Below, piece after piece: positions 3,466-64,000 of a DNA stretch of 64,000 nucleotides (position 1 is its first letter; every line of letters begins with the position of its first letter). Location of the stretch: positions 11,284,001 to 11,348,000 of the forward strand of contig CM069164.1 of the NCBI GenBank assembly GCA_035221665.1, given 5' to 3'. Both the position numbers and the translations under genes were made by a program. The notes under the pieces are model-generated. The model had not been told where the DNA came from. It worked only from the letters and a program-made list of their open reading frames with translations, and made no database searches. The stretch is from Okamejei kenojei (lineage: Eukaryota).

Positions 3466-6344
3466 TCACATCCTGCACTGAATGGACTACATGCCTGACC
3501 ATCAGTGTGGTGAGTTACAAAGACCCATCACCAACAGGGTGAAGACATTTCTCATCTCGGTCCTAATTCTGTATAATAAAGGTGGTACGGTGCCCAATTC
3601 TAATAGGATGGTACGGTGGCGCAGAGGTGGAGTTGCTGTCATACAACACCAGAGATCCTGACTGCGGGTGCCATCTGTATGGAGTTTGTACTTTCCCCGT
3701 GACCATGTGGGTTTCCTCTGGGTGCTCCGGTTTCCTCCCACACTCCAGAGGCATACAGGGTTGTAGGTTAATTGGCTTTGGTAAAAATTGTAAATTGTCC
3801 CCACTGTGTAGGGTAGTGTTAATGTGCGGGGATCGCTGGTCGGCGCAGACACGGTGGGCCAAAGGGCCTGTTTCCACGCTGTATCTCTAAACCAAACTAA
3901 ACAAAACTAAATTCTGAGTCTATGAACCCTGTTTCTAAGTTCCACAGGTTACTGTGGTGTTCATATGAGAGTGCAGTTGATACACAGACCAGATCCCAGG
4001 GGAGAACGGCAATGAAGTGTCCTTTATGCAAGAACGGATGTGGTGATGGGTTCACTTTCTATGTGGATGCTGAAGGAATTGTCCCCACACCTGGTCTAAT
4101 AGGGTGAATTGGAAGGAAGGAAGGATGCAAAGCCTTCCCACAAGTGGTGGAGCTCCAATTGTGGAGGACGCAGAGAGATCGGGAGCACGGAGCTGGGATG
4201 TGATCGCTATGAGGGGATAACTGGAGGGACAGGTCTAGATATCAGCTGACTGTGCTGCTCCTTGCGTGAATCAGAAGCGTTCAGGCCTGAATGTGTTGCT
4301 GAACACTAATCCCAGACCCAGATAGAACCAAAACAGGCCCTTCGGTCCACCAAGTCGGTGCTGACCATCAAGCACCCATTCGCACTAATCCTACTTTATT
4401 TTTCCCATGTATCAATCAGCTATCCGCAGTTACTACACACTAGGGACAAGCTGGAGCAGCCAACTCACCTTCCAACCTAGTGTGTAGGAAGGAACTGCAG
4501 ATGCTGATTTGTATCGAAGATAAACACAAAGTGCTGGAGTAACTCAGCGGGTCAGGCAGCATCTCTGGAGCAAAGTAATAGGCAACGTTTCGGATTGGAA
4601 CCCTTCTTCAGACTGAAAGACAGAGGTCGTGGGAAGGGACATGAGAAAAGGCCACCTATTCCATTTTATTCAGAGATGCTGCCTGACCCGCTGCGTTACT
4701 CCAGCACTTTGTGTTCATAAGTTCATAAGTGATAGGAGCAGAATTAGGCCATTCAGCCCATCAAGTCTACTCCGCAATTCAATCATGGCTGATCTATCTT
4801 TCCCTCCTAACCCCATTCTCCTGCCTTCTCCGCACAACCCCTGACATTGTGTCTATCTTCTAACCTAATATGTAGGCTCACACTAAGGTCACGGTCTAGA
4901 GCAAACCACAGGGCTACTGGAGTCAAGGGATATGAGGAGAAGGCAGGCACGGGTTATTGATAGGGGACGATCAGCCATGATCATATTGAATGGCCGTGCT
5001 AGCTCGAAGGGCCGAATGGCCTCCTCCTGCACCTGCTTTCTATGTTTCTATGAGTCAGCAACAAGGTGCAGAATCCTCCCAGAAATTCCATTCGAAGATA
5101 AACACTGATGACGGTCAACTGCGTTAGGCAAAGGCAAACGTGTAGATGAGGAGAGAAAGATGGGGCGGGGAGCGGCTGGCGTGGAGGGTAAACAGCACAG
5201 GATCTCTGAGCCGTATGCTCCATGTGCGGAAGGGAACGCCCTGCCAAGGAGGAAAGAGCTCCTTTTCTGTCTTCACGTAGCTCGATGCCTGGCAGGGAGA
5301 GAGAGCAGCACAACTGATGCTGTAAACAGTGATCTAATCTCTGAATGCAAGCAGCACAGTCAGTCTGCTGCTGAACGGCCCCGTCTTTGCATTTTCATAG
5401 CATTTCCGGCTTTGGCTCCGGGTGTTAGAGCAGATGAACGGTTATCTGGTGAAGCTGCACTGGTTCTTGCTCGATGTAGCCTGTATGTCCACCCCCTGCC
5501 TCCCGCACTGGAGTATGGGCAAGTCTGGCTATGCTGATCATTATATGTTAGCTATTATGTATTGCATTAATAGGCCTGCTGTGCTGCTGTTATAACGTCA
5601 GCTGCAAGAATGTAATTGTTCCATTGTCCGTATGGCAATTAAACAGCCTTGCCTCTCTTGATGTAGTCAGGATCGAACCTGAATCTCTAGCGCTGTAAGG
5701 CAGCACCTCTACCACTTTGGTTTTGCACACCCGTTATATTTTTACTGCCTCATAGCATGTATGTGTAAATTATGTAAGATTTACATGTAATTTATGGTGT
5801 GTGTTGTCTAAGTCCGTGGGTTCAAGGTGAGGTGGAAAAGATTTAATAGGAACACGAGAGGCAACTTTTTCACACAAAGGGCGGTGGGTGTTTGGAACAA
5901 GCTGCCGGAGGAGGTAGTTGAGGCTGGGACTATCCCAACATTTAAGAAAGATTTAGACAGGTACATGAATAGGACGGATTTAGAAGGGTATGGGCCAACC
6001 GCAGGCAGGTGGGACTAGTGTAGATGGGGCATGTTGGTCAGTGTGGGCAAGCTGGGCCGAAGGACCTGTTTCCATGCTCTATAACCCCAATGCACTGTGA
6101 CTGTGATGCAGCTGCTAGCGAGATTTTCATTGTACCTGTACCTCCCTGTACTTGTGCAGACGACAGTAAACTTGACGATTTAACTAGGTCGGAGAGGTAG
6201 GTATTAGAGTTAGTTAAGAGAGGAGTAACAAGGGTCCAGAGCTGAGGGCAAATTTAAAGGGGAGCAGAGAAATGTTCGCTGGCAGAGATTATGGAGATAA
6301 ATAACATTGGAATGAGTCAGAGACAAAACAATGTCTGGGGAGGG

Positions 6345-6935
6345 AACATAGACAATAGGTGCAGGAGGAGGCCATTCGGCCCTTCTTGCCAGCACCGCCA
6401 TTCATTGTGATCATGGCAATCCGTTATCAATAACCCATGCCTGCCTTCTCCCCATATCCCCTGACTCCACTAGCCCCTGGCGCTCTATCCAACTCTCTCT
6501 TAAATCCATCCAGTGATTTGGCCTCCACTGCCCTCTGTGTCAGGGAATTCCATAAATTCACAACTCTCTGGGTAAAAAAGTTTTTTCTCACCTCAGTCTT
6601 AAATGACCTCCCCTTTATTCTAAGACTGTGTGGCCCCTGGTTCTGGACTCACCCAACATTGGGAACATTTTTCCTGCATCTAGCTTGTCCAGTCCTTTTA
6701 TAATTTTATATGTTTCTCTAAGATCCCCCCTCATCCTTCTAAACTCCAGTGAATACAAGCCTAGTCTTTTCAATCTTTCCTCATATGACAGTCCCGCCAT
6801 CCCAGGGATCAATCTCGTGAACCTACGCTGCGCTGCCTCAATCACAAGGATGTCCTTCTTCAAATTAGGAGACCAAAACTGTACACAATACTCCAGATGT
6901 GGTCTCACCAGAGCCCTATACAACTGCAGAAGAGC
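6345..6935 (-). mobile_element. CR1-like LINE 3' fragment
   Basis: LYRALVRPHLEYCVQFWSP...TRGH followed by the same 3'UTR as 25262-25450. Confidence 0.9.
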
Positions 6936-7919
6936 CTGCAGAGGAATGCAGACCAAATTGCATTTCAGAAGAATCGGAATGTATACAGATGCTGTACATT
7001 AAAGACACCTCAGTAAAATAGCAGGTTGATTCCTATAGTATTCAGCTCTGCTTATTATTGAACAGTGAGCTATCCAGAGTGAGCAAGAGAGAGATACAAA
7101 TAAGTAATAATCATTTTTCAAGAAGCAGAGATGGATACAGCATCAAAGGAAGCCATCCAGCCCATTGTAATTGGTAAAGCTGGCTACGGATTTCACTGTC
7201 CTGTTCTTTCCTGTAATTCTTTTGAAGAATTCTTAAAGGGGAAGCACGGTGATATCACAATCGCCTTAATTTAACCACACGTGTCTGGCAGAAGGCACGG
7301 CAAAGCCTCTACTTCCTGAGGAGACTGAGGAAATTCGTCATGTCTCCAATAACTCTTACAAACTTCTACAGATGCACCCTCTGCCCCAAGACTGTAAGAA
7401 ATTGCAGAGAATTGTAGATGCAGTCCAGTCCATCACGCAGCCCGGGCCCAGGCCATTGACTCCACCTACGCTTGGTGTTGCCTTGGAACAGCAGCCAACA
7501 TAATCGCTGACTGGTCCCACCCTGGCCACTCCTTCGTCTCCCTGCTCCTGTCCAGCAGATACAGAAGCTTGAACGTGTGTCACCAACAGCCTCAGGAATA
7601 GCTTCCACCTCTCTTTTATCAGGATTCTGAACAGCCCTTCCATAAGCTAGTGTACTGTCCAATTCACTTTTACCCATTGTTGACATTGACCTATGCCTAT
7701 GGACCAGATATGCCACAAAGCCGAGAACTACATCCTGCACTCTTATCCTTCCCTTTGTTCTATCTATTGTCCTTGAGTTTGAGTTGCCTGTATTTACGTG
7801 TGGTGGATCTAATCTGTTTGGATAGAAAGCTTTCCACTGTACCTCAGTATTGGTGACTGTACTAAACAACAGAACCAAGCTTTTCTTATGGTTTAAAGGT
7901 TAGTTGGTGCTACTGTTCA

Positions 7920-8243
<324 letters not shown>

Positions 8244-9867
8244 TCAGCGATTCAGGCAGCATCTCTGGAGAAAAAGGATAGGTAACGTTTCCGGGTTGGG
8301 ACCCCAGGGTCTGGACCAGGAACGTCATCTATCCTTTTTCTCCAGAGTTGCTGCCTGACTCACAGCTCCAGATTCAGTGACAGTTTCTTTTCAACTGTTA
8401 TCAGGCAACTAAACCATCCTACCACCAACTAGAGAGCAGTCCTGAAGTATAATCCACCTCATTGAAAACCCACGGGCTGTCTTTGATGGCTTTATCTTGC
8501 ACTAAACATCATTCACTTTATTCCCTTTATCATGTATTTTTACACTGCGGACGGCTCGATTGTAATCAAGTATTTGTCTTTCCACTGACTGGTTAGTACG
8601 CAACAAAAGCGTCTCACTGTACCTCAGTGCACGGGACAATCAACTCAACTAAACTCAAACTGGCCCGCTGAGTTACTCCAGCACTTTGTGTCTATCTACA
8701 GTGTAATAGAAGTTGGCACAGGGAAGGTGACCCCATGCCTATATTTTTGAAAAAATCATTCATTTATCTCATTAAAAAATAACCATCCACCACGACCAGA
8801 AACCAATTATTGAGAAGCCCTCAGACAACCCAGCCCAGGGATGGAACTGTCCTATCGTTCAACTAGATCCCAGCTCTGCTGTTGATAGATTCCAGCCACT
8901 TGTTGAACTTTCACACCCTCCGACTGTTGAATTAACCCTTCTTGTTTTATTGTGGGAGGGGGGGGGGGGGATATTCAAGATTCTGCACCGTTACTCCTGT
9001 CGAGAAGTAGGTCTTGATATCGCCCAGGATGATTTTGTTGTACTTTTGAATTATATCTTCCACTAGTTATAGAATGTCAATTCTCCAGTGAATGTAATTC
9101 CACTTCCAATCCGACCCTGCTGATTCCCTCTTTCTGCTTGGCTTCCTCTGCCAGGGATGTTTTGAGCCGTAACCAAGAAGGCCAGAGCGTTGAGGGGTGT
9201 CATTATGAGTCTGGGTTTCTGGCGTTTTATTGACCACTTCAGACTGAAGACAGGTCAGTGAGTGGTCGCTGGGAGGGGGAGAAGAAACCAACGCAGAGGT
9301 CATCTCTGTGTGGAAAGAAACTGCAGGGGCTGCTTTATACCGAAGAAAGGCACAAAGTGCTGGAGTAACTCACGCGGGTCAGTCAGCATCTCTGGAGAAA
9401 ATAAATAGGTGACGTTTCTGGTCGGAACCCTTCTTCAGGCTGCTGGAAGAGTTGCCAGGTAAGCTTGCCAAGTTCAAGTTCAAGCTACATTTATTGTCAC
9501 AGTGGTACAGTGAGATTCGAGTTACCACACCGCCATATGAATAAAAAAATAACACAATACACGATAGAGTTTAACATTAACATCCCCCCACAGCGGAATC
9601 AACTGTGAGGGAAGGCAATAAAGTTCAGTCATCTTCCTCTTTCTTGCCCGATAAGAAAAGGGTCATTAATAATTGTGAAAACTTTTGAAATGTACACATT
9701 TGCAAAATAAAACTCTTTGCCCTGATTCTGACTGAGCTTTCTTTTTGGGGCAAGATGATCATTGTGGCTGTGCGGTGTACCTCACTGCACGTGGTGTACA
9801 TGGCAGTCTCTACTTTATTTGGCGACGCCGGTTTTGGACTGTTACACAGGCACTGGTAACGCCTGTG

Positions 9868-10634
9868 GCCCAGCTTGTCTGGCAAAATGCCTCATCGCCA
9901 GAACTCACCAACAAGAACCAAGACCTGGCTTGGCTGGCGGTGAGGGGAGCCCTCCCAGTCAGATCCTTCCTGCACCGTCAGAACCTCACTGCCAGCGCAC
10001 GCTGCCCTCGAAACCGCTGCTATGGAGAGGAGACGGTTGCCCACCTCTTTACAGAGTGTGGGTTTGCTAAAAGAGTCTGGAGAAAAATGCAAGGGTCCCT
10101 GGTACGCTTTATCCCGAACAGCTCCGTCACAGAGGACTCGGTGATTTACGGACTGTTCCCAGGGACACATTCAGAGGCTGACATCGAGTGCTGCTGGAGG
10201 GTCATCAACTCGGTAAAAGACGCCCTTTGGTCTGCCCGAGCATTGTTCACCACCCAGCAGAGCGAGATGTCCGTCAGGGAATGTTGCCGATTGGCCCGCT
10301 GCAGACTGCAGGAGTACGTGCTGAGGGACGCACTGAAGCTCGGTGCAGCCAACGCCAAGGCTCGGTGGGGGAGGGCCACAGTCTAAGGCCCTTCCGCTGC
10401 TGGACATGGGGGCACGGTATGGTGGAGACGCCCCTCAATATAAGGGAAGGTATCCCACGCCATTGTGGCACGAGTGGGGGACTGATTTGTGGAAATTTGG
10501 GGAAAAGAAATGTCTAAACTGTATTGATCTATTGTACAGCCTCCGAAAATGTCGGATGGATTTTCCGCAAGGTCAATGTATTGTATATATTTATCATTTG
10601 AATAAAGTATATTTTGAAATTTAAAAAAAAAAAA
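9868..10634 (+). mobile_element. 5'-truncated Tx1/L1-clade LINE with intact zf-RVT C-terminus, 3'UTR, AATAAA and poly(A)
   Basis: Open frame to 10386 with LAVRGALP...CPRNRC.GEETVAHLFTEC zinc knuckle; AATAAA at 10601; A-run 10623-10636; AACGCCTGTG duplicated at 9858-9867 and 10635-10644. Confidence 0.88.
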
Positions 10635-12554
10635 AACGCCTGTGACTCAGGCAGTGGTCAGTCGGCGGAAGGGTTGCTTCTCCTCTGGAGCAGACATCCC
10701 CACTGACAGGCACATTTTCCAGGAGAGAGGGCAGGCTTTGGCCCAACACTGGGGGGGCAGCACTGAGTGCTGTAGGCCATAAGGGTTCATAAGACACAGG
10801 AGCTGAATTTTACCCCTTGAGTCTGCTCCGCCACTCAATCACGGCCGATCTATTTTTCCCTCTCAACCCTATTCTGCTGCCTTCTCTCCCTAATCTTTGA
10901 CATCCTCACTAATCAAGAACATATCAATCTCTGCTCTAAAAATACCCAATGACTTGGCCTCCACAGCCATCTGTGGCAATGAAATCCCTCCTCATTAGCT
11001 CACAGGACATGACCAAGACGACGCGTCTCTCAGGACCTTGGCTACTCCGTGCCTGTACTGTGTCCTCAGTGATCAGTTTCTTTCGGATGCAGACGCCTCC
11101 TACACAGACCTCCCTCTGGGATTATTGTCTTGGAAGGGTCTGTAGTCGTTTAGGAAATGACTGCACTGCGTACCAATGTGAGTGAACTCAAGCTGGACAT
11201 TAGAGAGCTCAGCCTTTTGTTATAATCAGCGTGTTGGCATGGCGATGGATTAGGAGGAAGCTTTCCGTAGGCCGATCAGATAATGGGCTGCAACCAGTTA
11301 TCCAGCACTTTGACTTGCGCTTGAAGGGCCTGCAGTCACATTTATATTGGTGAGAGAATCTGGCTGCAAGTACTATGACAACAATAACTTGTATTTGTGT
11401 GGAACCGTTCCATGGAAACAAGCCACAAGCCCCTCCTCAGTAATTTAGTTTAGTTTAGAGGTGCAGCGCGGAAACAGGCCCTTCGGCCCACTGAGTCCGC
11501 ACCGACCAGCGATCCCCGCACATTATCTGCACACGCCAGGGACAATTTACAATTACGCCAAGCCAATTAACCTACAAACCTGTACGCCTTTGGAGTGTGG
11601 GAGGAAACCAGAGCACCCGGAGAAAATCCGCGCAGGCCACGGGGAGAACGTATAAACTGTGTACCGACAGCGCCCGTAGCCAGGATCTAAGCCGGGTCTC
11701 TGGCGCTGTAAGGCAGCAACTCTACCGCTGTACCATATGGTGCCCACGATAGTAATGTTACCAAAACATGTTTTAGTCTCCATGGAAATTTAAGCCATTA
11801 ATAAACGAACAGGTTTTAATTGAAAACACGTTTCAGATTGTGACCCTGCAAACCTTTTTACTTAAGCTTCAGTGAAAAAATGCTTTCTGGGATTGAAGTG
11901 GACATACATGAAACACGTGTTGGCGCGCCTGTTTAGTTTAGCCGTTCATGGATGTGCTTAAAATATCTACCCTGGTAATCCCACGTCCCGTTCGATTCCT
12001 ATAATCCTGCGATCCCTATCCGTCCATTCCCTGCACATCCATGTACCTTTCTCAAAGTCTCTCAGATGCCTGGCCTGGTAGTGCGTTCCAGACACCTCAG
12101 ACTCTGTGTAGAAAACCTGCCTTGCACATCTCCTTTAGCTATTTGCCCATCTCACCTTAAAACTATGTTCTCTAGTCTTTGGCATTTCCACCTTGGGAAA
12201 AAGGTTCTGACTGTTCACGTTATCTAGGCCTAATGCCTCTCATAATTTTATATACTTCCACCAAGTTCCCCCACAACATCCAACACTCCAGAGAAAACAA
12301 TCCCAGTTTGTCCAACCTCTCCTTATAAACTAATCCAGGCAGCATTCCGGTCCTGCCTCCTAAACCCAGAACTTCTACCATTTAGAAGGATAAAGGCCTG
12401 TAAACACCACTGGAGCACATCGCTGAGTTCCCCAGTACGCAGCGTGCTATTTTGAATTGAAACCATATCATTGTTTCTTCATATCTTTCATTCATTGTTC
12501 TTTATCTCTCCACATCACCGTCTATATCTCTCGTTTCCCTGATCCCTGACCAGT

Positions 12555-12582
12555 CTGAAGAAGGGTCTCGACCCGAAACGTC
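12555..12582 (+). ncRNA. Minimal type I hammerhead ribozyme motif in a Penelope pLTR (representative plus-strand copy)
   Basis: CUGAAGA-A-GGGU(CUCG)ACCC-GAAAC-GUC: both conserved core boxes, paired stem II and an NUH triplet; stems I and III are minimal. Activity untested. Confidence 0.68.
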
Positions 12583-13015
12583 GCCTATCTCCTTCGCTCC
12601 TTAGATGCTGCTGCACCCGCTGAGTTTCTCCAGCCTTTTGTGTACCCTCGATTCTCCAGCATCTGCAGTTCCTTCTTTAACACAATGTTTCTTTATTGTG
12701 GTGACACTTCCCAGCCGACAGCGTGGTGGGAGTATTTACTTTATGTGATGCCTTATTATGTAATACTTAAAGTATTAACTCACTGTTAATGTCTCAAGGA
12801 TAACTCAACATGGGATACAGAAACCAGTCAGGCCAGCCACGTCCACATTCCGCAAATGAATAAACAAAAGAAAAAGATTAAAAACTCCCCTTTCGAAAGT
12901 TGCTGTTGAACCTGTTTCTGACCTCCCCTTCCACAGTGCATTCCATTCGAGAACAGGCTCTGTATCCTGGCTCTGATGCTGGAAACAACTGCGGGTGTAT
13001 GTTATCCTCACTCAC

Positions 13016-13128: not shown

Positions 13129-13193
13129 CTGCAACACGTACAAAGAATCCTCCAATGAGCTCCAAAAATTAAAAATATCAAAACATCACGTAT

Positions 13194-38440: not shown

Positions 38441-41323
38441 TTACAGAAATAGAGCGATGGAGGGATACGGTTTGGAAACAGCCCCTTCGACCCAACGCCC
38501 GCACCGACCAACATGTCCCAGCTACACTAGCCCCACCTGCCCGCGTTTGGCCCATATCCCTCCAAACCTGTGCCATCTATGTACCTGTCTAACTGTGTAC
38601 CCGTGACCACGTGGGTTTTCTCCGGGGGCTGCGGGTTCCTCTCACGCTCCAAAGACGTTCGGCTTTGTAAGGGTTTCGGCCCGAAACGTTGCCCATTTCC
38701 TTCGCTCCATAGATGCTGCTGCACCCGCTGAGTTTCCCCAGCATTTTTGTCCACCTTCGATTTTCCCAGCATCTGCAGTTCCTTCTTAAACAGCTTTGTG
38801 GGTTACTTGGATTCTGTAAATTGTAAATTGTCCCTAGTGTGCGTAGGATGTACGGGGTAATTGTTGGTCGACGTGAACTCGGGGGGGGGGGGGCGAAGGG
38901 CCTGTGTCCACACTGTATCTCTAAAGTCATTTGTGAAAGAATGCATCGACTGGGCTTATATTCACTGGAATTTACAAGGATGAGAGGGAATCTTCTAGAA
39001 ACATTCTTAACGGATTGGACAGGCTAGATTCAGGAAAAATGTTCTCGATGTTGGGGGTGTCCAGAACCAGGGGTCACAGTTTAAGGATAAGGGGTAGGCC
39101 ATTTAGGACTGAGATGAGGAAATACCTTTTCTCCCAGAGAGGCCAATTGGACCCTGTCCCTGTCCTCTCCCCTCAGCCCGGCAAATTCTACCCTTTCAGT
39201 TGTATCTGTGCCCACAACTCTCCAACCCACCACAGTAATCACACCAGCTGTGTGAAGATGTGTTTCCTTGTGTAACTTTTGGCTTTTCTGCCAATTCTAT
39301 CCCCTTGAAATCCACTACATCTTGACCTCTGCGCCAACATGAACTCTTTGTCTCCCTCTCTTCTCTCTTCCGTTACTGAAGCAGCAATAAATGTGCACGG
39401 GCTGGTTTGGTGTAAGTGAGTGGGCGGTGTTTTACTTTATTGTCGCAGAGTGGAAACAGGCCCTTTGGCCCACCGAGTCCATGCTGACCCGCGATCACCC
39501 GTGCCCCAGATCTATCCTACGCACTAGGGACAATTTACAGAAGCCAATTAACCTACAAACCTGCCGGTGACTTAAACTTTAGACGTTAGCGATACAGCGC
39601 GGAACCAGGAGCTTCGGCAGATCGAGTCTCCGCTGACCGGCGATCATCCCGCACATTATCCGACACTCTAGGGACAATTTACAACTTTACCGAAGCTAAT
39701 TAACCTGCAAACCTGTTCGTGTTTGGAGTGTGGGAAGAAACAGGAGACCCGGGAATAATCCACGCGCTGGCAGGGAGAACGTAGGAACTCTGTACAGACA
39801 AGCACCCGTAGTCAGGATCGAACCCGGCTCTCTGGCTCTGTAAGGCAGCAACTCGACCGCCGTACTAATGTGCCGCACTGAAGGTGTTTGCAAAGTGTTG
39901 GGTTCAAATGGTTAAATCGGCTACATTTAGTTCTGCGTAGGAAGGAAGTGCAGATGCTGGTTTACACCGAAGATAGACACAGGAATGGTGGAGTAACTCA
40001 GCGGGACAGGCAGCATCCCTGGAGGGAAGGACATTTAGTAATTTACATTTAGTTCTACCTCTATCTGACCCCCCCCCCCCCCCCTCACAACCTCCTCTGT
40101 CCCAAGGAGAACAATCCTGGCATCACCAATCTATCCACAGAACCAGAATCCCTCAAAGCTGGAATCGTTTTAGTAAAATCCGTCTGCACTGTCTTGAAAG
40201 CCTTCACATCTTTCCCAAAGGGCGGTTGCCAGAACTGAACACAATTCTCCAATTGTGGCTGGACTCATGTTTTATACAGATTCTTCCTGAATTCCAGGCT
40301 CTTTCATTCTGTGTGATTGTTCATGAAGCTTGGGGTTCAGTGTGTGATATTTCAGCTATCTCCTCAAGTCTGAACTATGCACACCCCCTCCCCCTCTTCC
40401 CCTCTCCCCCCCTCCCCTTGCTCTTGTACCCCTTTAGGGTGAATGTGCTGCCTCATCGAGATTGCCCCTTCCCATTTTGTTGGCGGTGGCAGAAGCTCCA
40501 GTAGGCCGGGGCTTGTTGGTGGGAAGCCAACAGGCCGAGCTGGCCCCTGCTAGCCCCTCGCGGTGGGACACACTGTAACCCGGCGGGCCGCGATGGGTTG
40601 GGGGGAAGCTGCCGAAACAGACCCTGCTCTTCCCCGAAGACCAGAGACTGGGAGGATGGAGCCGGTGGCGATGGGCGAGGAGCAAGGCCGGTCGGCGAGT
40701 GTCTGGTCTACTGCGCCCTCAAGGTCGGCTGCGGGAGGCATCCCCTGGGCACAACGGTGGACGGGCGAGGAGAGAGTCGCCGGTTCACCGGTCGATCCAC
40801 ACGTCCGAGGAAGGTAATAGCTGGAGGCCCACAGCAGCCTGGGATTCGCCTGGAACGGGCACCGCTCATAACAACTAGAGCGCAGACTAGACTTTGGAAA
40901 CGGCACCAAAACATGGTGCCTCTTGCACGCGGGCTCGGTGCACTATTTCTGTACATTTGAGGTTGACATAAAGAGCTGGAGTAACTCAGCTGGTCAGGCA
41001 GCATCTCTGGAGAAAAAGGATGAGTGACGTTACGGGTCGGGACCTTCCTTCAGACTGTCTGAAGAAGAGTCGCGAACTGAAGCGTCACCCATTCCCTCTC
41101 TGAGATGCTGCCTGTCCCGCTGAGTTACTCCAGCGTTTTGAGTCTAACGAAGAACTGAGAGAGTTTGAGCTTCAAAAACAATCCTCGCCTGGTTCCTTTG
41201 TTTTGAGATCTGTATAAGACGTTGGCAGCGATCCCTACGTCCTGGACACTGCACGGAGCATCCCCTGTCGGCCTGGTCTTGGTGGCCATGGGACACGCAC
41301 GTTGCGGTGGAAACGCCACTTAC

Positions 41324-41524: not shown

Positions 41525-43039
41525 CTGCGGAGAGAGAGCAGAGCACGGCGGTGAGGGGTTGGGACGCGGGCTCCAGTAGACGGGCAGCACCACGTCCGGT
41601 CGCGGTGCAACCACGCTCCGCTAATCCGGCACGCCTGGCACCTCCATTAGTGCTAACGGACTGGTCCATTTTCTGGATTACCAGATTTAATCCTATTAGT
41701 ACACTGACCCACTTTTAGATTAATTTAATTTAGTTTAATTTAGATTAGTTTTGTTTAGTTTAGTTTGGAGCATAGTCTCACTGCATGGAAACAGGCCCTT
41801 CGGCCCAACTTGCCCACATACCCCATCTACACTAGCCCCACCTGCCTGCATTAGGCCCATATCCCTCTAAACCTGTCTTATCCATGTTCCTGTCTGAATG
41901 TGCCTTATGCGTTGCGATAGTCCCTGCCTTCACTACGTCCTCTAGCAGCTCGCTCCATACACCCACCATCCCTTGTGTGAAAAAGTTATGCCTCAGGTTC
42001 CTATTCAATCTTTCCCTCTTCATCTTTGGTTTAGTTGAGTTTTTTTTAAGATACAGCATGGAAACAGGTCCTTCGGCACGCCATTCTATGCTATCCCACT
42101 TTTCCATCCTACAGACTGGGCACAACTTACAGAAGCTAATTAGACCTACAAATGTACATGTCTTTGGAATGTGGAGGGAAACCGGAGCACCCGGAGGAAA
42201 CCCACACGGTCACAGGGAGAATGTACAAACTCCATACAGACAGCACCCAGAGTCAGGATCGAACCTGGGTCTCTGGGGCTGTAAGGCAGCAACTCTACCA
42301 CTGCGCCACCGTGACACACAATGTTTTCTTACGTATCACATGGTTTATTGGATATTTTCCAGTGAAACAGCTGAGATTTAAGGGGGACAGATTTAAGCGA
42401 CTGAACATGTGGGAATCCTGAGGAAACTGCTGGTGGAATGGTGAGCAGGTCAGGCAGCATCTGTGGAAAGGATGCACCGGTGACGTTTCTGGCCAGGACA
42501 CTTCTTCTGGTTGTGAAACAGTGAGTTTAAGGGAAGTATGGGAATGTGCTCCTGCCGTTTAAAGGGTTAGAGGGGATGGAGCCTAGAGGGGTTTCAAGGG
42601 AATGGGACCTTGGTGATCTTAAAGGGCGCAAGAGGACAGGGCCAGATGTGTTTGAAGGGGATGTGGGATGTGAACGGTGAGTTTAACATTGGAAAAAGAA
42701 CCAGCTGAAGCAGACACTGAATCATTGGGTGGGAACTTCAGAAAACTCAGATAGAGAGTCGTAGAGCATGGTCGCAGGCCCTTTGGCCCACCTTGTCCAT
42801 GCTGTCCAAGTTGGCATTCTGGGCTAGTCCCCTAGACTCTTCCTATCCACAAATCTGTCCAAATGTCTTTTGAAAGGTGTAGTGGTTGTACCGACTTCTA
42901 TAGCTTCTCTGGCAGCTCTTTCTAGATATGACGACCCTCTGAGGGAGAAAAAGTTGCTCCCGAGGTTCCTGGTAAATCTTTCCGCTCAAACCTTAAAACG
43001 TTTGACCTCTAGTTTTAAAAATGCTCTACTCTGGGGGGT

Positions 43040-43081
<42 letters not shown>

Positions 43082-45959
43082 AGCTGTGGGCATTCACTTT
43101 ATGCATGCTCCTCATGATCTTGTAGATCTCGAGAAGGTCACCTCTCAGCTTCCCTAGTGGGTCAATGTGATTTCACTGTACAGGCACCTCGCGTCTTACA
43201 TGGGGCGTACCTGCTTGAAAATAACCTATACGTGACTACGCTGTCAGCGCTCAATTTGAGCACGTTATTCCAAAAATACCAGCGTCTTAATCAAGCTTTG
43301 GTATTAATGGAACACATGCGATATTTCAAAAACACTTTAATCAAACACTCGTAAAGTGTGAGGTGCATGGACCACTATCCCGTACGATTAGTTGGTCCGC
43401 ACGCAACAAAAGCTTTTCACTGTACCTCAGTACACATGACAATAAATGAATGAATGAATGAATGAATAGGTTCATTAGCCAAGTATTCACATACAAGGAA
43501 CTTGCCTTGGTGCTCCGCCCGCAAGTGACAACATGACATACAGCGACAGTTAGGAATGACACATAAAACATGAAGCGTTAACAACAAAACATTATCGATT
43601 AAACATGTGAATTCAATAAGATACCCGAGCAAAAGGAGGCTACAGATTTTTGGTTATTGAGTAGAGCTACTACTCGTGGAACATAAGCTGTTTCTATGTC
43701 TGGCGGTGGCAGCTTTGACAGTCCGGAGTCGCCTTCCAGAGGGAAGTGATTCAAAGAGTTTGTGGCCAGGGTGAGAGGGGTCAGAGATGATCTTGCCCGC
43801 TCGCTTACTGGCCCTTGCAGTTCCCTTGGCCCTTAAACTAAACGGAACTGATTCCTTGGCATGTGTCTGACATAAGTCAAGGTACTGCAGGACTTCAAAT
43901 GCCTTCCATACCACAGAGTGCCCCTTCAACTGCGTTGGGAGTTTGAGATGGAGATTGAGTTTGAGTTTAGTTTATTGTCACATGTACCAAGGTACAGTGA
44001 AAAGCTTGTTGTTGCATGCTAACTAGTCAACAGAAAGGCAATACTTGATTACTGTTGAGCCATCTACAGCAGACAGATAGATGATAAATGCAAGATTAGT
44101 GCAGGATAAAGAGTAGTAGAGTCTGATCACAGATAGTCCGAGGGTCTCCAATGAGGTAGGTAGCATAGAAAGATGACCAGTGCTTCCCGCGCATGGAACC
44201 AGTGCATTCAGCCCAGAATTTCTAATCTCTGACAACAAACCGCAAATCTTAGTCTCTGACACCACAGGGAAAGGCCATTTGACCCCTCTCCTCGGTACAA
44301 GCTCTTTGGAAGAGGGATCTAATTGCAGGGGTGACACAGTGACCCAGCTGGTAGGGCTGCTGCCTCACAGCACCTGAGGCTCAGATTCAATCCTGACCTC
44401 GGGTGCTGTCTGTGTGGTGTTTGCACGTTCTCCCTGTGACCACCTGGGTTTCCCCCCGGGTGCTCCTGTTTCCTCCCACATCCCAAACACAGGTTAATTA
44501 GCCTCTGTGAACTGGCACTGGGATGCGAAGATGGGATAACATAGAACTGGTGTGAATGTGTGATCAATGATTTTACTTCGGAGTCACGTGAGTGACTACG
44601 TGAAGACCCCGCCAGCACGCATGCGCGACATATCGTCGAACGCATTGTGGAAGCGACAGTCGGGAGGAGCGTCGCTCCTCCAGCGTAAGTTTTAAAAACT
44701 TACTGAAGGTAAGTTCTGGTGAGCGTGGCGACTGGGTGTACTTCCTTTTTCAGAACGGAGGAAGCACCATGGAGTCGCGTAAGGGAGAGCAGCGGCTAAA
44801 ACCGCTGCTGTGGAAGCAGCCAGCAGCGTGCCGTCTCTCCAGAGCAGCAGGTGCTGCCAGCAGCTCCCGGCTTCTCGCCGCTACAGACCGCAGGTGCGCC
44901 CGACGGCAGAACCACCCGGAAGTCGGACAGGGCCGTTGACTCGGCTGGATCCGGACCTGAAGACACCCCGTTCCCGGATAGCGACGGCGGGCGTCTTTCC
45001 TGCAGGAGCGGGTGGGGAGCAGTGCTCCAGCGTGACCTGCTTATGCAGGGGCAGAGTCACAGTGGGTCTCCTCGCAGACCCACGGCAGGATCCTTTCAAG
45101 GACTGCCAAATGTCTCACCCTCTTCCCAGGGGAGCATTAGGGGTCAGAGCTGGGCTGACCCTGAAGAAGGGGCAATGGCTGAACAGTCAACTGTGTTAGG
45201 GGTGCCAGAAGAATTGTGGGGCATGGGAAAACATGCTGTACCAAGGACTGCCTATACATCCCAAACTGGCAGCCAGTACAAATTACATGGCTACAAACCA
45301 GCTGCAGGAGCAAGCCATTAACTCTACGGCTGGGAAATACTTCGCTCCAGAGAAAATGCATTCTCTTAAAGTACCAGCAGTCTACAACCCCATCTGGGGC
45401 AACATGAGCCCATCTATAAGGAGCCAGGAGGTGAAGCTCCAGAGAATCCTTAAACTGCTGGCTGCTGTCACAGCAGTACCAGGACAACTGATGGGGTTGA
45501 TTTGCCTGAAGAGCTACGAGATGCTCTAGCAGACTGTGTAATACTCAGTTCGAGATTAACAGTTACAGGAAGAGCATCATCAAGAAGTGCGGGATTATGC
45601 AGGACCAGTCGCACACAGCCGCCAAAATTGCTGTTGGGGACACCTCCCGAAGCAGGTGAAAGACCTGGATGAGGGGGCCAAGGCTATAGGCCTGATCAAG
45701 GTGCCAAACACCTCTAAACCCCACCATCAGCAGCGGCAGCACCCCTACACACCCACCAGACATCGGTACTATGGAAGACCATCTGGTGGTGAAAGCTCGA
45801 AGGCCGGCCCACCTACACAGCGGTCTTTTAGACCATGGCCCAGCCCGGCCTTCATGGAAAGTGCGCCAACCCCACAACGCAGCAACACGATACCAGAAGA
45901 AACAAGGGCAGAGACAACCCACACAACACCGGCGGTAACCATGGAGGTAGGTGGGTCTG

Positions 45960-47720: not shown

Positions 47721-47744
47721 CCATGACCGCATGAACTTGTTGAT

Positions 47745-48958: not shown

Positions 48959-51416
48959 CCCTCCGCTCCCAAAACCCTCTATTATAAAGTTCAACTGGTA
49001 TGGAAGTTCTCTCTTATCTTATTATATTAGTCTACTCTGGTATCTGTGATTTCACACCACTGCTTTGAAGAATGTTGCGCATGCGTGCTGGCGGGATCTT
49101 CACGTAATCCCTCATCGTAACTCCTCTTAAAATAAAGATCAAACTTCAAACTGGTAAGTTCTCATTTAATCTTACTATCAGCGAAGAGCTTGATTTAATC
49201 TTACAGTAAACTTTCATGTATCTATTATTTATGCACCTGGGATTCTCACCCACCCAGCAAAAGCTTTCTAAGAATCTTTAGGCCATTTCTTTTTTTTCCT
49301 GAAGAAGGGTCTCAACCCGAAACGTCACCCATTCCTTCTCTCCAGAGATGCTGCCTGTCCCGCTGAGTTACTTCAGCTTTTTTTATGTGTGACAGGGAAT
49401 TTTTTAGTTTGTTAACCTTTAGCGATAAGACAGTGGAGTTGTGGGCTGGTTAGCAACAACATCATCTGTGAAGATCTGGCACTCCATCGGTACAGTCCTG
49501 CTTTTGATTTTCTTTTGCTCGAGTTTATCTTAATACTGTTTCATCCTAAAATATAATCTTTTTGTTTTATTTTACATTAGCATTGTTTAGTCTTAAAACG
49601 TAGGATTGCAGTCTCAAAGATTATTATTCAATTGGGTAAGGAGATGACATATATATAGTTCATAAGTGATAGGGGCAGAATTAGACCATTCGGCCCATCA
49701 AGTCTACTCTGCCATTCAATCATGCATGATCTATCTCTGCCTCCTAACCCCATTCTCTGGAATTGTCTGCCATAGAAGGCAGCGGAGGCCAATTCACTGG
49801 ATGTTTTCAAAAGGGAGTTAGATAGAGCTCTTAGGGCTAACGGAATCAAGGGATATGGGGAGAAGGCAGGGAATGGGGATACTGATTTTCGATGATCATA
49901 TTGAATGGCGGTGCTGGCTCGAAGGGCCGAATGGCCTACTCCTGCACCTATTTTCTATGTTTCCCCATAACCCCAGACACCAGTAGTAATCAAGAATTTA
50001 TCTAGCTCTGCCTTAAAGCTAGTTTGTCAATTTATTTAAAGGTTTATGTGTGGAATACCCGTGGGTGATGTGCAGTAATGCGTTTCTTTCAGACATTCAC
50101 ATGCATCTAGCAGCCCACCATTCCCCGCGGGCTATATTGTATTTATGTTCCCCACTTTCTCTCTTTCCATAACATGGCTTTTTTTTTTTCTTCACATATT
50201 CATCTAAATCCATTTGTTAAAAGTCTGTTGAATCCATTGCACTGCTCATTCAGACATAACATTCTAGATGACAAGTGCGAGTGAAAACAATTCTCCGCTG
50301 ACTACTACAGCCTCACAATGGCTCCCTTGTTACTTGGATTTGGTCGAACTCATCTTTTTCCTTAACCTCACAAGGTTAAATGCATTCCCTTTCCCACAAC
50401 CCAGAGGCTCTCAAAACCTAACATCCACCCACAACATAGTATCTTCACTGTCTCCTCCCGTGGTGCAGATGGAAAAGGAATGTGGGAGAAGGCTTTTCGG
50501 CCCTTCGAGCCTGTTCTGTCACTCAATGGGATCCATTTGCAACATCTCCTCACGTACTGTCCTGTCTCAGACCTTTCCATTAAACATAACTGAAGTCTGA
50601 AGAAGGGTCTTGAGCCGAAACTTCACCCATTCCTTCTCTCCAGAGACGCTGCCTGTCCCGCTGAGTTACTCCAGCATTTTTTGTCCATCTTCAGTGTAAA
50701 CCAGCACCTGCAGTTCCTTCCTCCACATAACTATCAATCTCAGGTTTAAAATGCTGGTGATAGACTGGTGAAGAGTGACGATGGCTTCATCAGGACCTCG
50801 ATTCACTGTCGGATTTTTTTGGGCAGGACCTACACAGAGAAGGGTAGGGCTCTGGGAAGTGTTGGAGAGAAGGGGGATTTAGGAGTGCAGGTACATAGTT
50901 CCTTGAAAGTGGCATCACAGATGGTCAAAAAGGCTTTCGGCACAATTGGCTTAATCTGTCAGAGTATTGAGTAGAGAAGTTGGGAGATAATGTTGCATTT
51001 ATATAGGATGTTGGTGAGCCCACATTTGGAGTAATGTGTTGTTTTGGGCACCATGTTATAGGAAAGTTGTTATCAAGATTTGAATGGGTGCAGAGAAGAT
51101 TTACGAGGATGTTGCCAGGACTCGAGGGCCTGATCTATAAGGATTCTATTCCTACTTTTTTACACAAAGGGTGGTAGATATATGGAACAAGCTGCCGGAG
51201 GAGGTAGTTGAGGCAGGTACTATCGCGATGTTTAAGAAACATTTAGACAGGTACATGGATAAGATAAGCGTAGAGCTATATGGGCCAAACGAAGGCAGCT
51301 GTGAGTCAAGTGGATAGGACATATTGGTTGGTGTGGGCAAGTTGTACCGAGGGTAGACACAAAATGCTGGAGGCACTCAGCGGATGAGGCAGCATCTACA
51401 GAGAGAAGGAATTGCC

Positions 51417-51444
51417 GACGTTTCGGGTCGAGACCCTTCTTCAG
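51417..51444 (-). ncRNA. Minimal hammerhead ribozyme motif on the CORO2B-sense strand
   Basis: Reverse complement reads CUGAAGAAGGGUCUCGACCCGAAACGUC, identical to 12555-12582. Activity untested. Confidence 0.66.
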
Positions 51445-52116
51445 ACTGAAACGTCGCCAATTTCTTCTCTCCATAGATGCTGCCTCACCCGCTGAGTATC
51501 TCCATCATTTTGTGTCTACCTTCGATTTTACCAGCATCTGTAGTTCTTTCTTAAACAGTTGGACCGTAGGGCCTGTTTCCACGTTGTATGTCTATAACTA
51601 CGACTAAGTGCAAAGTGGGCCAAGGAATGGCAGAATTTAACTCAAACATGTGCAGAATTATGCCTATTGAGAAGTAAAACCAGGGTAGGACATACACAGT
51701 GAATGGAAGGATCTCGGGGAGTCTTGTAGAGCAATGGGAAGTAGGGGTACATGTACATAGTCCTCTGAGAGTGACGATACAGGTAGAAAGGTTGGTGAAA
51801 AGGGCTTATCATACTCTGGCTTTCATCAGACAGGGCATTGAATACAATAGTTGGGATGCGATGATACAGTTGTACAAGGAGTTGGTGTGACCACACCTGG
51901 AATAGTGTGTGCAGTTCTGGATGCCTTGCTATCGGAGGGATGTGGCTGATCTTCCACAATGTTCACCAGGTATTGCCAGGACTGCATGGCTTGAGTTGTG
52001 AGGAAGGTCTGGATAGACTGGGACCTTTATCCCTGGAGTGGAGGAGGCAGATAAAATCATGAGAGGCACTGATAAGCCGGATTGTCATACTATTTTTCCC
52101 AGGTAGGTAAGTCTAA

Positions 52117-54524: not shown

Positions 54525-55073
54525 TTAGTGGAATGTTACTGGGCTGGAAGGTTTCAGTTACAAAGAGATGGGCGAAGGGCTGTTTCCCTGGAGCGTAGGA
54601 AGCCTGGGTTGTATAAAATCACGAGGGTCGAGATAAGGTGACTAGTCACACTTTTTTCTTCAGGACAGGGGAGTCTGAAACTGGAGGACATACTGTAAGT
54701 TTAAGGTAGACAAAAGTGCTGGAAAAACTCAGCGGGTGAGGCAGCATCCATGGAGCGAAGGAAATAGGCGACGTTTCGGGTCGAGAACTTTTTTTTCAGA
54801 TTTTCCAGCATCTGCAGTTCCTTCTTAAACATACTGCAAGTTTAAGATGAGGAGGCAAAGATTAAATTGGGATCTGAGGGGCGACCTTTCCGCTCGTGGG
54901 ATCTGTGCATAAATGGAACAAGCTGCTTGGGGAAGTGTAGGAGAAGGGTGCAATTAACACCTTTTAAAAGACCCTTGGATAAGTAGGATAGGAGATGTTT
55001 TGGGGTATATAGTCCAGGCACAGGCAAGTGGGACTAGTTTGGTTCGGCAACTTTGGTCAGCATCGACTAGTTA

Positions 55074-59790: not shown

Positions 59791-59930
59791 CCTTGGAGAC
59801 AATGACTGGTGGTGTCTATAATTGTACATGGATCGGGCTGCCGGAGGAGGGATGGAATCTGAAGAAGTGTTGCAACCCAAAACATCGCCGATCCTTGTCC
59901 TTGGGAATTGCAGCCTGACCCGTTGAGTTA

Positions 59931-60139: not shown

Positions 60140-60877
60140 TTACTCCAGCACTGTGTGTCCTTCACAGGTACCATCCCAACACTTAAGAAACATTGAGACA
60201 CTTACATGGATAGGATAGGTTTAGAGGGATATGGGCCAAAAGCTGGCAGGTGGGACTAGTGTAGAAGGGTCGGCTTCCACGCTGCATGACTATGACTGAG
60301 TCAATGTCGGACCTCAGGCCACAGGGTAGGAAAGGTGCCGTGGGACTTTTTTTGAACAAGCAAGCCGAGTTTAACTTTTCCGTTGAAAGGTCCACCTCTA
60401 ACTATGCAGCAACCCTTCGGCGTGGGACTGGGTTTGCAGGGTGGTGTCAAGGAGTTCAGCTTGTTGGATATTACAGAGAGACCTTTCTGTCTCTGGCTGA
60501 GGAGTCTCCAAGATCCCATGAAGATCTGCTGAAGAAGTGAAGGGTGGCTTCCGGTGGTCCTGTCCTTCATTCCACCCGCATCCAGCACCGAATGGGAATT
60601 ATGCCCTTCAGGGAAACTAGACGTGAGGGAGGTGGAAGGATACGGTGATAGGGTGAAAGGCAGCAGAGCAGGAGGAAGCATGCAGAGAAGACAAAGTACA
60701 GGTGGGCCAACTAGCCTGCCTCCATGCTGCGGGCTCTATGCAGTAAAGGAAAGTGCAATTGCCCAGTTATTTGTCACGCTGTTACTTTGTGGGATCTTGC
60801 TGTGTGTAGGACAACCCCTACACTTGCCTGTATAGCAAGAGTGACTGTGGTTCTCCTACACTTTATATACCGCTGCC

Positions 60878-61652
60878 CAGGCACGGAAATCGCTATCAAA
60901 ATATGAGGGGGACCGNNNNNNNNNNNNNNNNNNNNNNNNNNNNNNNNNNNNNNNNNNNNNNNNNNNNNNNNNNNNNNNNNNNNNNNNNNNNNNNNNNNNN
61001 NNNNNNNNNNNNNNNNNNNNNNNNNNNNNNNNNNNNNNNNNNNNNNNNNNNNNNNNNNNNNNNNNNNGTGAACGGTAATTTCAGCTCAATCCAGCGCTAA
61101 ATGCAGCTCAACTCTGCCTGTCTCGCCTGGTGAACCTACAGCCCTGCCTGGACTGATGACATATTTCCCGTAAGTCCAGGTAGGGCTGTAGGTTAACCTG
61201 GCGGGACAGGCAGTGTTAGCTGGATTTAGCGCTGCATCTCTGTGCTGGCTATGGACCTCGAGGCACCTCTCCCGTCTGACTCCCGACATCTCTGGCCACC
61301 CCAGGGCATGGGGGGCTCTCGGGTGGTGACGGGGAAGGTCCAGTGGCGGTCCGGCAGGGATTGCAGCACCGGAGACCCGGGATCGATCTTGGCTTTGTGG
61401 ATGAGGCACAGGTCTGTGTCCAGGGCTGCCGAGAGTATTTTTCAATTGTGACCCTATGACCTGGGCACGTCTCCCTCCTCCAATCACCGCGCTCTATCCT
61501 CAGTCCCACCCCCACTGTCTCGCGGAAAGCAGAGATTTCACCGGGTTTTAAAATCCGGATTACAAAAAAAGGGGGGGGGGGGTGGGAGGTCGTTCCTCAC
61601 CTCTCAAATCACCTCTCTAATCCCCCCTGCCTCCCCGGGACTTCCACCCATG
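60878..61652. mobile_element. hAT-type element related to 19117-19409 (contains a gap)
   Basis: Shares CACGGAAATCGCTATCAAAA and TCCGGATTACAAAA-G(n) blocks; flanks CCGCTGCC / CTGCTGCC. Confidence 0.6.
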
Positions 61653-64000
61653 CTGCTGCCTCTCAGCGGCAGAGACCCGGGTTTGATCCTGACTACGGGT
61701 GCTGCCTGTACGGAGTTTGTACGTTCTCCCCGTGACCGGGTGGGTTTTCTCCAGGTTCCCCCCCACAGAAGTGCGGGTTTGTAGGTTAATTGGCTTTGGT
61801 AAAATTGTAAATTGTCCCTAGTGTGTGGGATAGTGCTAGTTTACGGTGTATGGGGATCGCAGGTCGGCGCACACTCGGTGGGCCGAAGGGCCTGTTTCGA
61901 CGCTGTATCTCTAAAGCCTAAAGTAAAGTCTAAAGACGCATCTGATGAGCTGCCCTTGCTGACTCCATCAAGTGTTGGATAATCAAGCCTTTACGGTATT
62001 GACCTCTGTGGCAACGACAGCACCTTCCACACTCACGACCTCTCCCAGCTGGGAGAAAGGCAGTAACACCAAGGGGAACGCCACAACCTGGTCACTGTCT
62101 ACCAAGCCCACACCGCCCTGACTTGGTCATCTATCGACCTTCCTTTCACTGTCTCTAGGACGGTCAGAGTCCTGGCAACCCCCTCCCCATCGACATGCCC
62201 GCACCTCAAGGAAGGCAGCGGTTGACAAAGGCAGCTCACCGCCACCTTCTCACGGGCAAACAGATTCCGGCAATTCAATTCTGTCTCAGCCTTCCGGAAT
62301 GAAGCATGAAAAGTGCAAGACGTTTCTGAGAGATGTGACGTGGCTTAGCGTAACGCACAGCGTAATGCCTTGAACTCTCTCGACACGGAACAAGAACAAA
62401 TTCTGAACCATCCTCAGCGACAAGGTTAAATGTAACAACGGGATTCCTTCTGCAAGATGTGTAAAATGGGAGCGAGATAACGGACACATGCAAGACATTA
62501 TCTACCGTGTCTGGAATGGAATCATCAATCTTACTCTATTTAAATGCACTGCAAAGAAAAGTAACTGGATGTCTTCCAAGAGACCAAATACCAAGGTCCA
62601 AACCTCACTTTTACATCAAGTCTTTTATTATTACTTCCAATAGTCTGGATCCTGATATCAAGTCCCTACAACACTTCTGCGTTGTGTCAGTTCTGGCTCA
62701 GAGGCCCAAGGGCTGAGCCAGAAAATTGTGGTCTCACACACCAGAAATTAGACGCGTTATATCTGGGCTGACGCCGGCCCTGTAGAACAAGGAGTGCTGC
62801 TCTTTCTCAGTAACCTCACTGAGTGAGCGAAGTGTGGTCTGCTGATGAGGCACTCAAGAGGACATAGAAGATCTCAGTGCCACCTCATGGAGTGAGTGAA
62901 GTGGACTTTGCCTTGGGAGCAGATAAGGTGCTGCTAAAAGGGGCTAAGGTTAAGGTTTAGAGGGATTTGGGCCAAATGCGGGCAGGTGGGACTAGTGTAG
63001 ATGGAGCATCTTGGTTGGAATGGGCATGTTGGGCTGAAGGGCCTGTTTCCATGCTGTATGACTCTATGCTTCTTGGTGATGTCCTGCACAATGAACTTTG
63101 AACTTTCACCAGGTAACTTTGGATGAAGGCAAAGCTTCCATCACCAACAACCTCGCCGACTTTTCACTTGGGCCAAGTGCTTGAAATCTTAGAATACCCT
63201 CACTACCAAACTCCCTTTTTTTTGTTTCCATCTCATTCTCCTGGCATCCGTATAAATGATCTGGATTTGATCCACATCTCCAGTGATCTGTGGGGTTTCA
63301 CGGAGCTGCAGAGCAAACTGTGGTTGACGGGCCCGCTTCAGAGACGCCCTCAGCATCACGGCTACTCCTGGCTGCCTGACATCAAGGCGAAACCAGGTCA
63401 TCTCTCGCACATCTACTCTCCCACGTCATGGGCAACATCTGCCCACACCTGCACCTTGACAACTGTTGGCCACCCAACAGGTTGACAGCACCTACCTCGC
63501 CGGCAGTGTGGAAACACCCCTCCTCCTGTCGCCACAATCAAACATGCCCAGTTATCACCATGGCAATGCCAACCCACTCTGCACCATGGCAACCTGAAGA
63601 AGGGTATTGACATAGAAACATGGAAAGATAGGAAATAGGTGCAAGAGTAGGGCCATTTGACCCTTTGAGCCCGCTCTGCCATTCAACATGATCATGGCTG
63701 ATCATCCTAAATCGGTACCCCGTTCCTGCTTTCTCCCCATATCCTTTGATTCCGTTAGGCCTAAGAGCTATATCTAACTCTCTCTTGAAAACATCCAGTG
63801 AATTGGCCTCCACGGCCTTCTGTGGCAGAGAATTCCACTCACTGCCTTTGTGGCAGAGAATTCCTTGACCCAAAACGCCACCTATCCATGTTCTCCAGAG
63901 ATGCTGCCAGACCTGCTGGGTTACTCCAGTGCTTTGTGTCCTTCTATGGCAACACCTGCGATAGAAGGTCACAGTCACTACACGGTTGTCACAGATAGAA

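Follow-up and report, generated by a model that had tools for sequence, protein, structure and literature searches.

The window, that is, the whole 64-kb stretch of DNA analysed here, is populated by one short repeat, of which a profile HMM seeded with six window copies retrieved 41 copies at E<=1e-3, and none in the reversed window. A sequence-only reading of the same DNA had recognised the abundance of this repeat, but its count of about 25 copies was too low, and the length of about 130-200 bp that it gave does not hold for the unit itself, which measures about 97 or 134 bp; copies exceeding this length do so because they carry along 3' UTR. Throughout, the unit is numbered from +1, placed 3 nt before the hammerhead core, so that the predicted cut falls after +31. 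The copies are the following.

4475..4717, head-to-head inverted pair (4475-4645 minus, 4647-4717 plus)
8186..8374, both strands, inverted pair
8660..8707, plus strand, fragment +60..+107
9305..9443, minus strand, solo unit +1..+136
12474..12688, plus strand, young copy with 78 nt of 3' UTR and a complete, tailed unit (+1 = 12552); genomic copies reach 99-100% identity
12555..12582, plus strand, intact minimal hammerhead within that copy (core 12555-12561, extra A 12562, stem II 12563-12574, GAAA 12575-12578, CGUC), predicted cut after 12582
17533..17685, minus strand, unit with a short pyrimidine-rich upstream piece
18492..18779, fragment (18492-18567 minus) and inverted pair (18573-18693 minus, 18689-18779 plus)
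19621..19804, both strands, inverted pair
20373..20703, short arm in inverted orientation (20373-20424 minus), attached to UTR pieces plus a unit with tail (20424-20703 plus); stem II has a mismatch
24307..24601, plus strand, copy that includes about 230 model positions from the 3' UTR and stops at +100
27078..27245, both strands, inverted pair, minus arm from +3
27390..27541, both strands, inverted pair, old and diverged, found by the short model only
28347..28437, minus strand, ORF-body fragment of the element, 78% identical to L082
30851..30952, minus strand, unit +36..+137, without the core
31492..31667, both strands, inverted pair
32083..32308, both strands, inverted pair, old
34814..34910, plus strand, solo unit +1..+104
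37408..37613, plus strand, unit +1..+134 of the UUCG/GUU subfamily, directly followed by a +31..+103 piece
37978..38444, plus strand, 5'-truncated element: GIY-YIG C-terminus, stop, 3' UTR, hammerhead with mutated palindrome, unit to +76
38669..38795, plus strand, UUCG/GUU subfamily copy cut at +10, without CUGAAGA
39933..40031, minus strand, unit +38..+135, without the core
40948..41166, both strands, inverted pair, both arms from about +1
42350..42534, minus strand, old diverged copy
49299..49382, plus strand, solo unit +4..+87 that has lost stem I but kept core and stem II intact
50593..50729, plus strand, solo unit +1..+136
51345..51566, inverted pair, minus arm (intact motif) ending at +103, plus arm tailed to +143
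54678..54802, minus strand, solo unit, degenerate
59856..59930, plus strand, solo unit +1..+75, old
63864..63949, plus strand, unit +16..+101

This repeat forms the terminal unit of a Penelope-like element (PLE) of the autonomous type, with RT, a CX4CxxC linker and GIY-YIG, and the Penelope origin proposed from sequence alone is thereby borne out. The order is RT, linker, GIY-YIG and 3' UTR followed by the unit, with the ORF following the unit in partial tandems. Among 20 RT-containing loci, the unit lies at the expected distance behind the endonuclease in 16, is displaced in 2 and absent from 2. Within the window, 37985-38146 codes for the GIY-YIG C-terminus, behind which come a stop, some 225 nt of UTR and then the motif, as had been noticed for 37985-38440. 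Partial tandems forming a pLTR are present: in L077 the unit runs on into the ORF start, and UTR stands ahead of the unit in 9 of 30 ORF-start loci read by eye, 7 others of which begin at +1..+6 with unrelated flank; the likely ATG of the element lies near +168. The frame P0001 comprises the RT thumb, the linker (CNRKKCNTC) and GIY-YIG; it has 217 longer relatives, and among the 120 listed most carry RVT_1 and some GIY-YIG. These frames and relatives point to a single ORF with RT and with GIY-YIG at its C-terminus, and the linker, which fits CX2-5CxxC, would assign the parent element to Neptune or Nematis. GIY-YIG was matched in 3 of 5 natural open frames, with scores below the Pfam cut-off, no complete intact ORF was found among 20 young loci (longest open frames <=393 aa), and the ESM Atlas returned nothing for P0001. 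Where flanks were followed, the subfamilies concerned adjoin copies coding for RT and endonuclease. Extrapolation to the genome yields 0.9-1.3 million units, or a few percent of the genome, in keeping with the very high copy number first suspected, and about 1e5 intact hammerhead motifs.

The motif in the unit is a minimal type I hammerhead that has an ACGU palindrome and in which A9 is followed by an additional base, and as such matches the published one (PMC4209133, in its available parts). Although recognisable at all seven sites cited in the sequence-only reading, it passes the strict pattern in only 3 of the 41 window copies (12555, 49299 and 51417): copy 20566 has a mismatch within stem II, 38372 has lost the palindrome, C11.1 is U in 27146, and 38671, with its UUCG loop and GUU site, is missing the CUGAAGA half of the core. 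When core boxes, the extra base after A9, G10.1-C11.1, the palindrome replacing helix III and the pLTR position were scored, 6 of 7 clusters showed the minimal features in their majority sequence, whereas that of the oldest cluster has A in place of G12, at a CpG. Stem I measures 2 bp, as first described (of 282 copies, U-A in 167 and U-G in 61, G-C in 196, an A-C mismatch in 190). Stem II is identical across all 7 clusters, and the variation with kept pairing that had been described there reduces to a one-sided U-A to U-G change (20/282) with no compensatory change; both sides are altered in scattered copies only (6 and 4), and covariation of helix II, tested on the 282 copies and 7 clusters, was not found. 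The expected excess of core conservation over the rest of the unit is borderline, polymorphic non-CpG sites numbering 0/10 in the core versus 19/59 downstream (p=0.052), and 4/28 for the whole motif (p=0.12). Ribozyme activity is uncertain, as the sequence-only reading held. The minimum-energy prediction gives a structure other than the active one (-6.7 kcal/mol for the dimer hammerhead fold versus -19.7 for the best predicted dimer). An Rfam scan returned no hammerhead family and 7 weak matches, all to microRNA models on fold-backs, since minimal motifs evidently escape Rfam.

Copy ends are concentrated away from the cleavage site. Of 331 unit matches, 118 start at -4..+5, staggered across +1..+4 rather than at one base, whereas only 14 start at +28..+36 and a single one ends at +27..+35. 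The 3' ends form two clusters, 148 of 362 lying at +86..+115 and 128 at +126..+145, and four runs from related organisms show the same unit junctions again. Among 103 solos, A occupies +1 in 58 and G occupies +2 in 67, while -1 is near background; a cap-derived G at -1 was not found (8/43 versus a 21% background). Starts at -25..-5, seen in 42 of the 197 core-spanning copies and partly representing UTRs of other subfamilies that the model covers poorly, together with loose read letters at -1 that are partly UTR-like, mean that the pile-up at +1 is somewhat overstated. The upstream flanks of 71 solos are unrelated to the UTR, and none of their 2485 pairwise comparisons exceeds 60%.

Head-to-head pairs hold 114 of the 331 unit matches, and in 46 of 56 inverted pairs a short arm faces a long one (p=7e-7). 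Flank duplications of >=9 bp accompany 13 of the 56 inverted pairs, versus 0.46 expected, and 14 of the 103 solos, versus 0.85 expected, with only 2 of 48 long-ended solos among them; some insertions bear target-site duplications of about 9-15 bp. An inverted 5' copy and a one-sided tail of 30-40 bp occur as well, L166 showing such an inverted 5' copy/tail arrangement with a 14 bp duplication. Same-strand core-bearing neighbours within 400 bp number only 6 among the 197 core-spanning copies (683 kb).

The fixed start point makes it likely that the short copies reproduce only the opening 100-135 nt of the element's RNA in its uncut form, and are not a separate self-cutting family. We consider it probable that most of them are dead-end retrocopies of this terminal unit, made by reverse transcription from an internal start to the 5' end of uncut RNA. 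The position +1 would then be the transcription start of an internal pLTR promoter, and reverse transcription would begin near +97 or +134 on uncleaved RNA, in either the 5' or the 3' unit copy of the transcript, and run to the RNA 5' end. A start in the 5' copy would give a 97-134 nt cDNA, resembling a strong-stop product and inserted as a solo stub; from the 3' copy, elements with the ordinary 5' truncation would arise, and fold-backs would result when two starts occur on opposite strands of the target. The hammerhead, if active, may be a slow ribozyme acting in master transcripts with the assistance of a dimer or a protein, and would be a mere passenger inside the stubs. Lunse et al. reportedly described dimer cleavage of PLE hammerheads.

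A bolder proposal, which we put forward tentatively and regard as rather doubtful, is that the stubs record a strong-stop-like step of PLE replication. The transcript would start 3 nt before the hammerhead, where reverse transcription would run off, and cleavage by the downstream hammerhead would leave exactly 31 nt at the RNA 3' end; these first 31 nt could act like a retroviral R region, allowing the short cDNA to jump to the cleaved 3' end and rebuild the pLTR. No paper among those listed by a literature search joins Penelope, pLTR and strong-stop.

The same element could also have produced these ends if +1 were not the first base of the RNA, through a stall or template switch of the RT or through RNA processing, for instance at a 3' splice site with CAG before +3. 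The bases ahead of +3 do resemble a pyrimidine tract plus CAG, the intron of D. virilis ends at helix I (PMC4209133, in part), the 5' ends are staggered, and small fold-backs occur at the +1 point. This alternative nevertheless appears distinctly unlikely: over half of the solos retain A at +1 and G at +2, both of which spliced RNA would lose, which disfavours a 3' splice site at +3, and a hairpin stall would be expected 3' of the structure and not 5' of it. In one raw poly(A) short-read run of a related organism, of which about 6% was read, no splice joint at +3 figured among the joints listed; the reads, mostly passengers, covered both strands about equally and showed no pile-up of RNA starts or ends.

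Alternatively, the stubs could constitute a SINE-like non-autonomous family, whose members would themselves be transcribed from the internal promoter, the PLE enzyme then copying them in trans. They contain the putative start site and both RT start sites, some have target-site duplications, and solos outnumber UTR-bearing copies (117 versus at most 80 of 197). Against this, the youngest cluster mixes solos with UTR- and ORF-bearing copies sharing identical diagnostic bases, and the 71 solos have no common flank, which read-through from a few sources might have left; we hold such a family to be improbable. Least credible are non-LTR retrozymes, whose tandem units would self-cleave, circularise and retrotranspose as hammerhead-bounded monomers: the repeat is very abundant, non-coding and of type I, retrozymes are reported from one chondrichthyan and a pLTR derivation has been proposed for them (as far as the available text goes), but the motif is minimal rather than canonical, no circular permutation was seen, and the scarcity of tandem neighbours over the 683 kb, the avoidance of the cut site by both ends and the flanks leading to RT-endonuclease copies largely refute it for the copies studied, so that the label "retrozyme-like" originally attached to the repeat has to be dropped.

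On the ribozyme side, the repeat adds one more family to a hammerhead class described in 2014. The value lies in the scale and in the copy ends, which show to the base where copying begins and where it halts and may bear on both the PLE mechanism and the hammerhead function. If true, the R-like role would give PLE hammerheads a defined job. Direct tests could make use of the young subfamily, whose copies are 99-100% alike.

Minimal hammerheads are known from pLTRs of metazoan PLEs, including the fish Xena, Poseidon and Neptune (Cervera and De la Pena 2014, PMC4209133); no study of elasmobranch PLE hammerheads was listed by the literature searches, though supplements may list the present family. 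According to the available parts of that paper, the two share the CUGANGA core, the extra base between 9 and 10.1, G10.1-C11.1, the palindromic 15.2-16.2 without helix III, the pLTR location and mostly single, dispersed motifs with some opposite-strand pairs. Helices II and I measure 4 and 2 bp here, versus 7-8 and 4-5 bp in schistosome families, helix I being likewise 2 bp in D. virilis, and the extrapolated 1e5 or so intact motifs compare with 4,000-9,000 in coelacanth and Xenopus. The layout proposed here differs from that of D. virilis, where 46 bp separate the start site from a downstream intron that ends right at the hammerhead (PMC2377424, PMC4209133, both in part). With endonuclease-bearing Neptune and Nematis elements, as portrayed in the accessible portions of PMC8557442 and PMC3846280, the parent shares RT, the CX2-5CxxC linker, C-terminal GIY-YIG, heavy 5' truncation, partial tandems, the inverted 5' copy, the one-sided 30-40 bp tail and target-site duplications; here, a large share of copies is the bare 97-134 bp unit with a fixed 5' end, a pile-up not described in those portions (Craig et al. 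2021, Arkhipova et al. 2013). Non-LTR retrozymes carry canonical hammerheads and form head-to-tail arrays of 150-450 bp that are processed at the ribozyme (PMC7229834; bioRxiv 10.64898/2026.07.22.740005, in excerpt); the present copies share with them the abundance, the non-coding nature, the type I hammerhead and the link to PLEs (Cervera and De la Pena 2020, PMC7229834), but are solo or inverted and bounded elsewhere than at the ribozyme. In Anolis Poseidon PAc, two internal RT start sites define the tail and uncleaved RNA is used (Frangieh et al. 2024, PMC11167929, from the sections available). The ORF starts at stem II in PAc, versus a likely ATG near +168 here, and the likeness otherwise extends to two internal RT starts about 100-140 nt behind the hammerhead and to genomic and RNA ends that lie away from the cleavage site.

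A profile HMM seeded on six window copies and iterated to convergence recovered 41 copies of the unit, a terminal repeat of ~97 or ~134 bp from a Penelope-like element (PLE), from the window; the reversed window yielded none. The hammerhead motif quoted by the sequence-only reading matches the window, and a strict pattern of core, paired stem II and palindrome is satisfied by only 3 of the 41 copies. An Rfam scan of the window matched nothing but microRNA models, weakly and on fold-backs. In twenty 10 kb stretches placed at round-number genome positions there were 63 matches; sixty 10 kb stretches, searched with a longer model, held 277 unit matches and 26 intact motifs. Extrapolated to the genome (2.76 Gb in 1141 contigs), which by its repeat types is probably that of a skate or ray, this gives totals of 0.9-1.3 million for the unit and about 1e5 for the intact motif, from stretches that were not strictly random and over-represent small chromosomes. 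The window features are:

9736-10383 (+): fragment of another non-LTR retrotransposon
12474-12680: unit copy, young subfamily
12600-12670 (+): predicted long hairpin
26310-26945 (-): fragment of another non-LTR retrotransposon
37985-38146: GIY-YIG C-terminus
38671: unit copy with the UUCG loop cited for it, but lacking the 5' half of the core
44800-45318 (+): open frame, 173 aa
45560-46465 (+): open frame, 302 aa

Pfam domains in the non-LTR fragments at 26310-26945 and 9736-10383 are RVT_1 (E 2e-15) and zf-RVT (E 7e-11). Neither open frame has a Pfam match, and each could represent the antisense strand of a repeat or gene. Repeat families D9, D11, D12, D15, D17 and D20 of the window are abundant tRNA-like SINE and LINE 3'-end repeats, which we take to resemble cartilaginous-fish HE1/HER elements.

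Copy ends were surveyed over 683 kb (the window, its two flanks and the 60 sampled stretches) with a model that covered about 450 upstream and 340 downstream positions, yielding 362 matches, 331 of them on the unit. Numbering from the A that lies 3 nt 5' of the core (+1), cleavage is predicted between +31 and +32, near which 14 of the 331 matches start and 1 ends; copy ends thus avoid the cut site, the retrozyme label proposed from sequence is not borne out, and our verdict is that the repeat is one more PLE hammerhead family. 5' ends fall instead at -4..+5 in 118 matches. This boundary is real, because the upstream flanks of the 71 such copies without a 5'-side partner match neither the element's 3' UTR nor one another. 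Another 42 copies that span the core begin at -25..-5, and several of them carry the UTR of a different subfamily. At their 3' ends, copies fall into two clusters separated by about 35-40 nt, the one-sided tail already known for PLEs. Reads and contigs from four runs of related organisms stop at -1/+1, +97 and +134; these breaks mark where element meets flank rather than the ends of RNA, and UTR divergence accounts for part of the -1 pile.

Solo copies account for 190 of the 331 matches, head-to-head pairs for 114 and direct contact only for 22; a short arm faces a long one in 46 of 56 inverted pairs. Flank duplications occur in 13 of 56 pairs (0.46 in shuffled controls) and 14 of 103 solos (0.85 in controls), mostly short-ended solos (12/53) and rarely tailed or long-ended ones (2/48).

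The GIY-YIG C-terminus is encoded where first claimed, and the RT and N-terminal regions of the parent element were recovered by stepping upstream through genomic relatives. The unit lies at the expected spacing downstream of the endonuclease in 16 of 20 RT-bearing loci, and at L077, a partial tandem, it runs on into the ORF start. Among 30 loci chosen for the ORF start, the UTR precedes the unit in 9, the first base falls at +1..+6 beside unrelated flank in 7, and 14 begin further in, partly due to a query starting at +129. A natural 393 aa frame joins RT thumb, CX4CxxC linker and GIY-YIG, and its relatives contain RVT_1 and GIY-YIG. Such a linker marks the Neptune or Nematis clade (PMC8557442), and the parent element probably belongs to one of these. 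One subfamily is young, at 3% divergence, with copies that match its window member at 99-100% identity. Among them, L166 shows the classic insertion layout: a short arm in inverted orientation, a direct arm that bears the tail, and a duplication of 14 bp. None of 20 young loci holds an intact full-length ORF. Two small scaffolds (L179, L180) share one young inverted insertion and its flanking layout, through either segmental duplication or redundancy in the assembly.

A site strongly resembling a splice donor overlaps the likely ATG of the ORF (L077:2260-2275, unit +163..+175; L094-L123), and another, at about +50, resembles an acceptor. PLEs are known to retain introns. No matching joint appears among those listed from related-organism reads.

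In PAc, the Anolis Poseidon PLE, reverse transcription begins on uncleaved RNA at two internal sites defining the tail (PMC11167929). Applied here by analogy, a transcript with a unit at both ends would offer two start places: the 3' copy would give ordinary truncated elements, and the 5' copy would run out of RNA after 97-134 nt, leaving stubs. In a bolder step, the short cDNA would jump to the hammerhead-cut 3' end. The predicted hairpin, pairing +51..+58 with about +109..+116, may be an RT-binding stem-loop, because the two 3' end clusters flank its 3' arm on either side. Transcription presumably starts at +1, in an initiator-like context; no cap-derived G at -1 of copies, and no RNA start in one poly(A) run of a related organism, were seen, and both count against such a start. 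The Penelope promoter is internal to the pLTR (PMC2377424). A splice junction at the unit start is disfavoured, as more than half of the solos retain the +1 and +2 bases.

Stem II is identical across seven clusters at 3-17% divergence (282 copies), with variable loop and cut-site bases. One subfamily couples the UUCG loop, a U-G wobble, a GUU site and G1.1 (p=5e-6 to 4e-13); there the proposed stem II variation does keep pairing, but its changes are one-sided. Outside CpG sites, subfamily-level polymorphism is absent from the core, whose excess of conservation over downstream sequence is borderline (p=0.052). Predicted stem II pairing within the full unit is 0.01 for the young copy, 0.3 for the genomic copy L100 and 0.8-0.9 for the UUCG copy, and the predicted dimer hammerhead fold lies 13 kcal/mol above the best dimer. 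These predictions fit reports in PMC4209133, PMC11167929 and a review that minimal motifs of this type have low activity which depends on a dimer or on protein. The minimal hammerhead published for PLEs (PMC4209133) is identical in anatomy to the motif of the unit.
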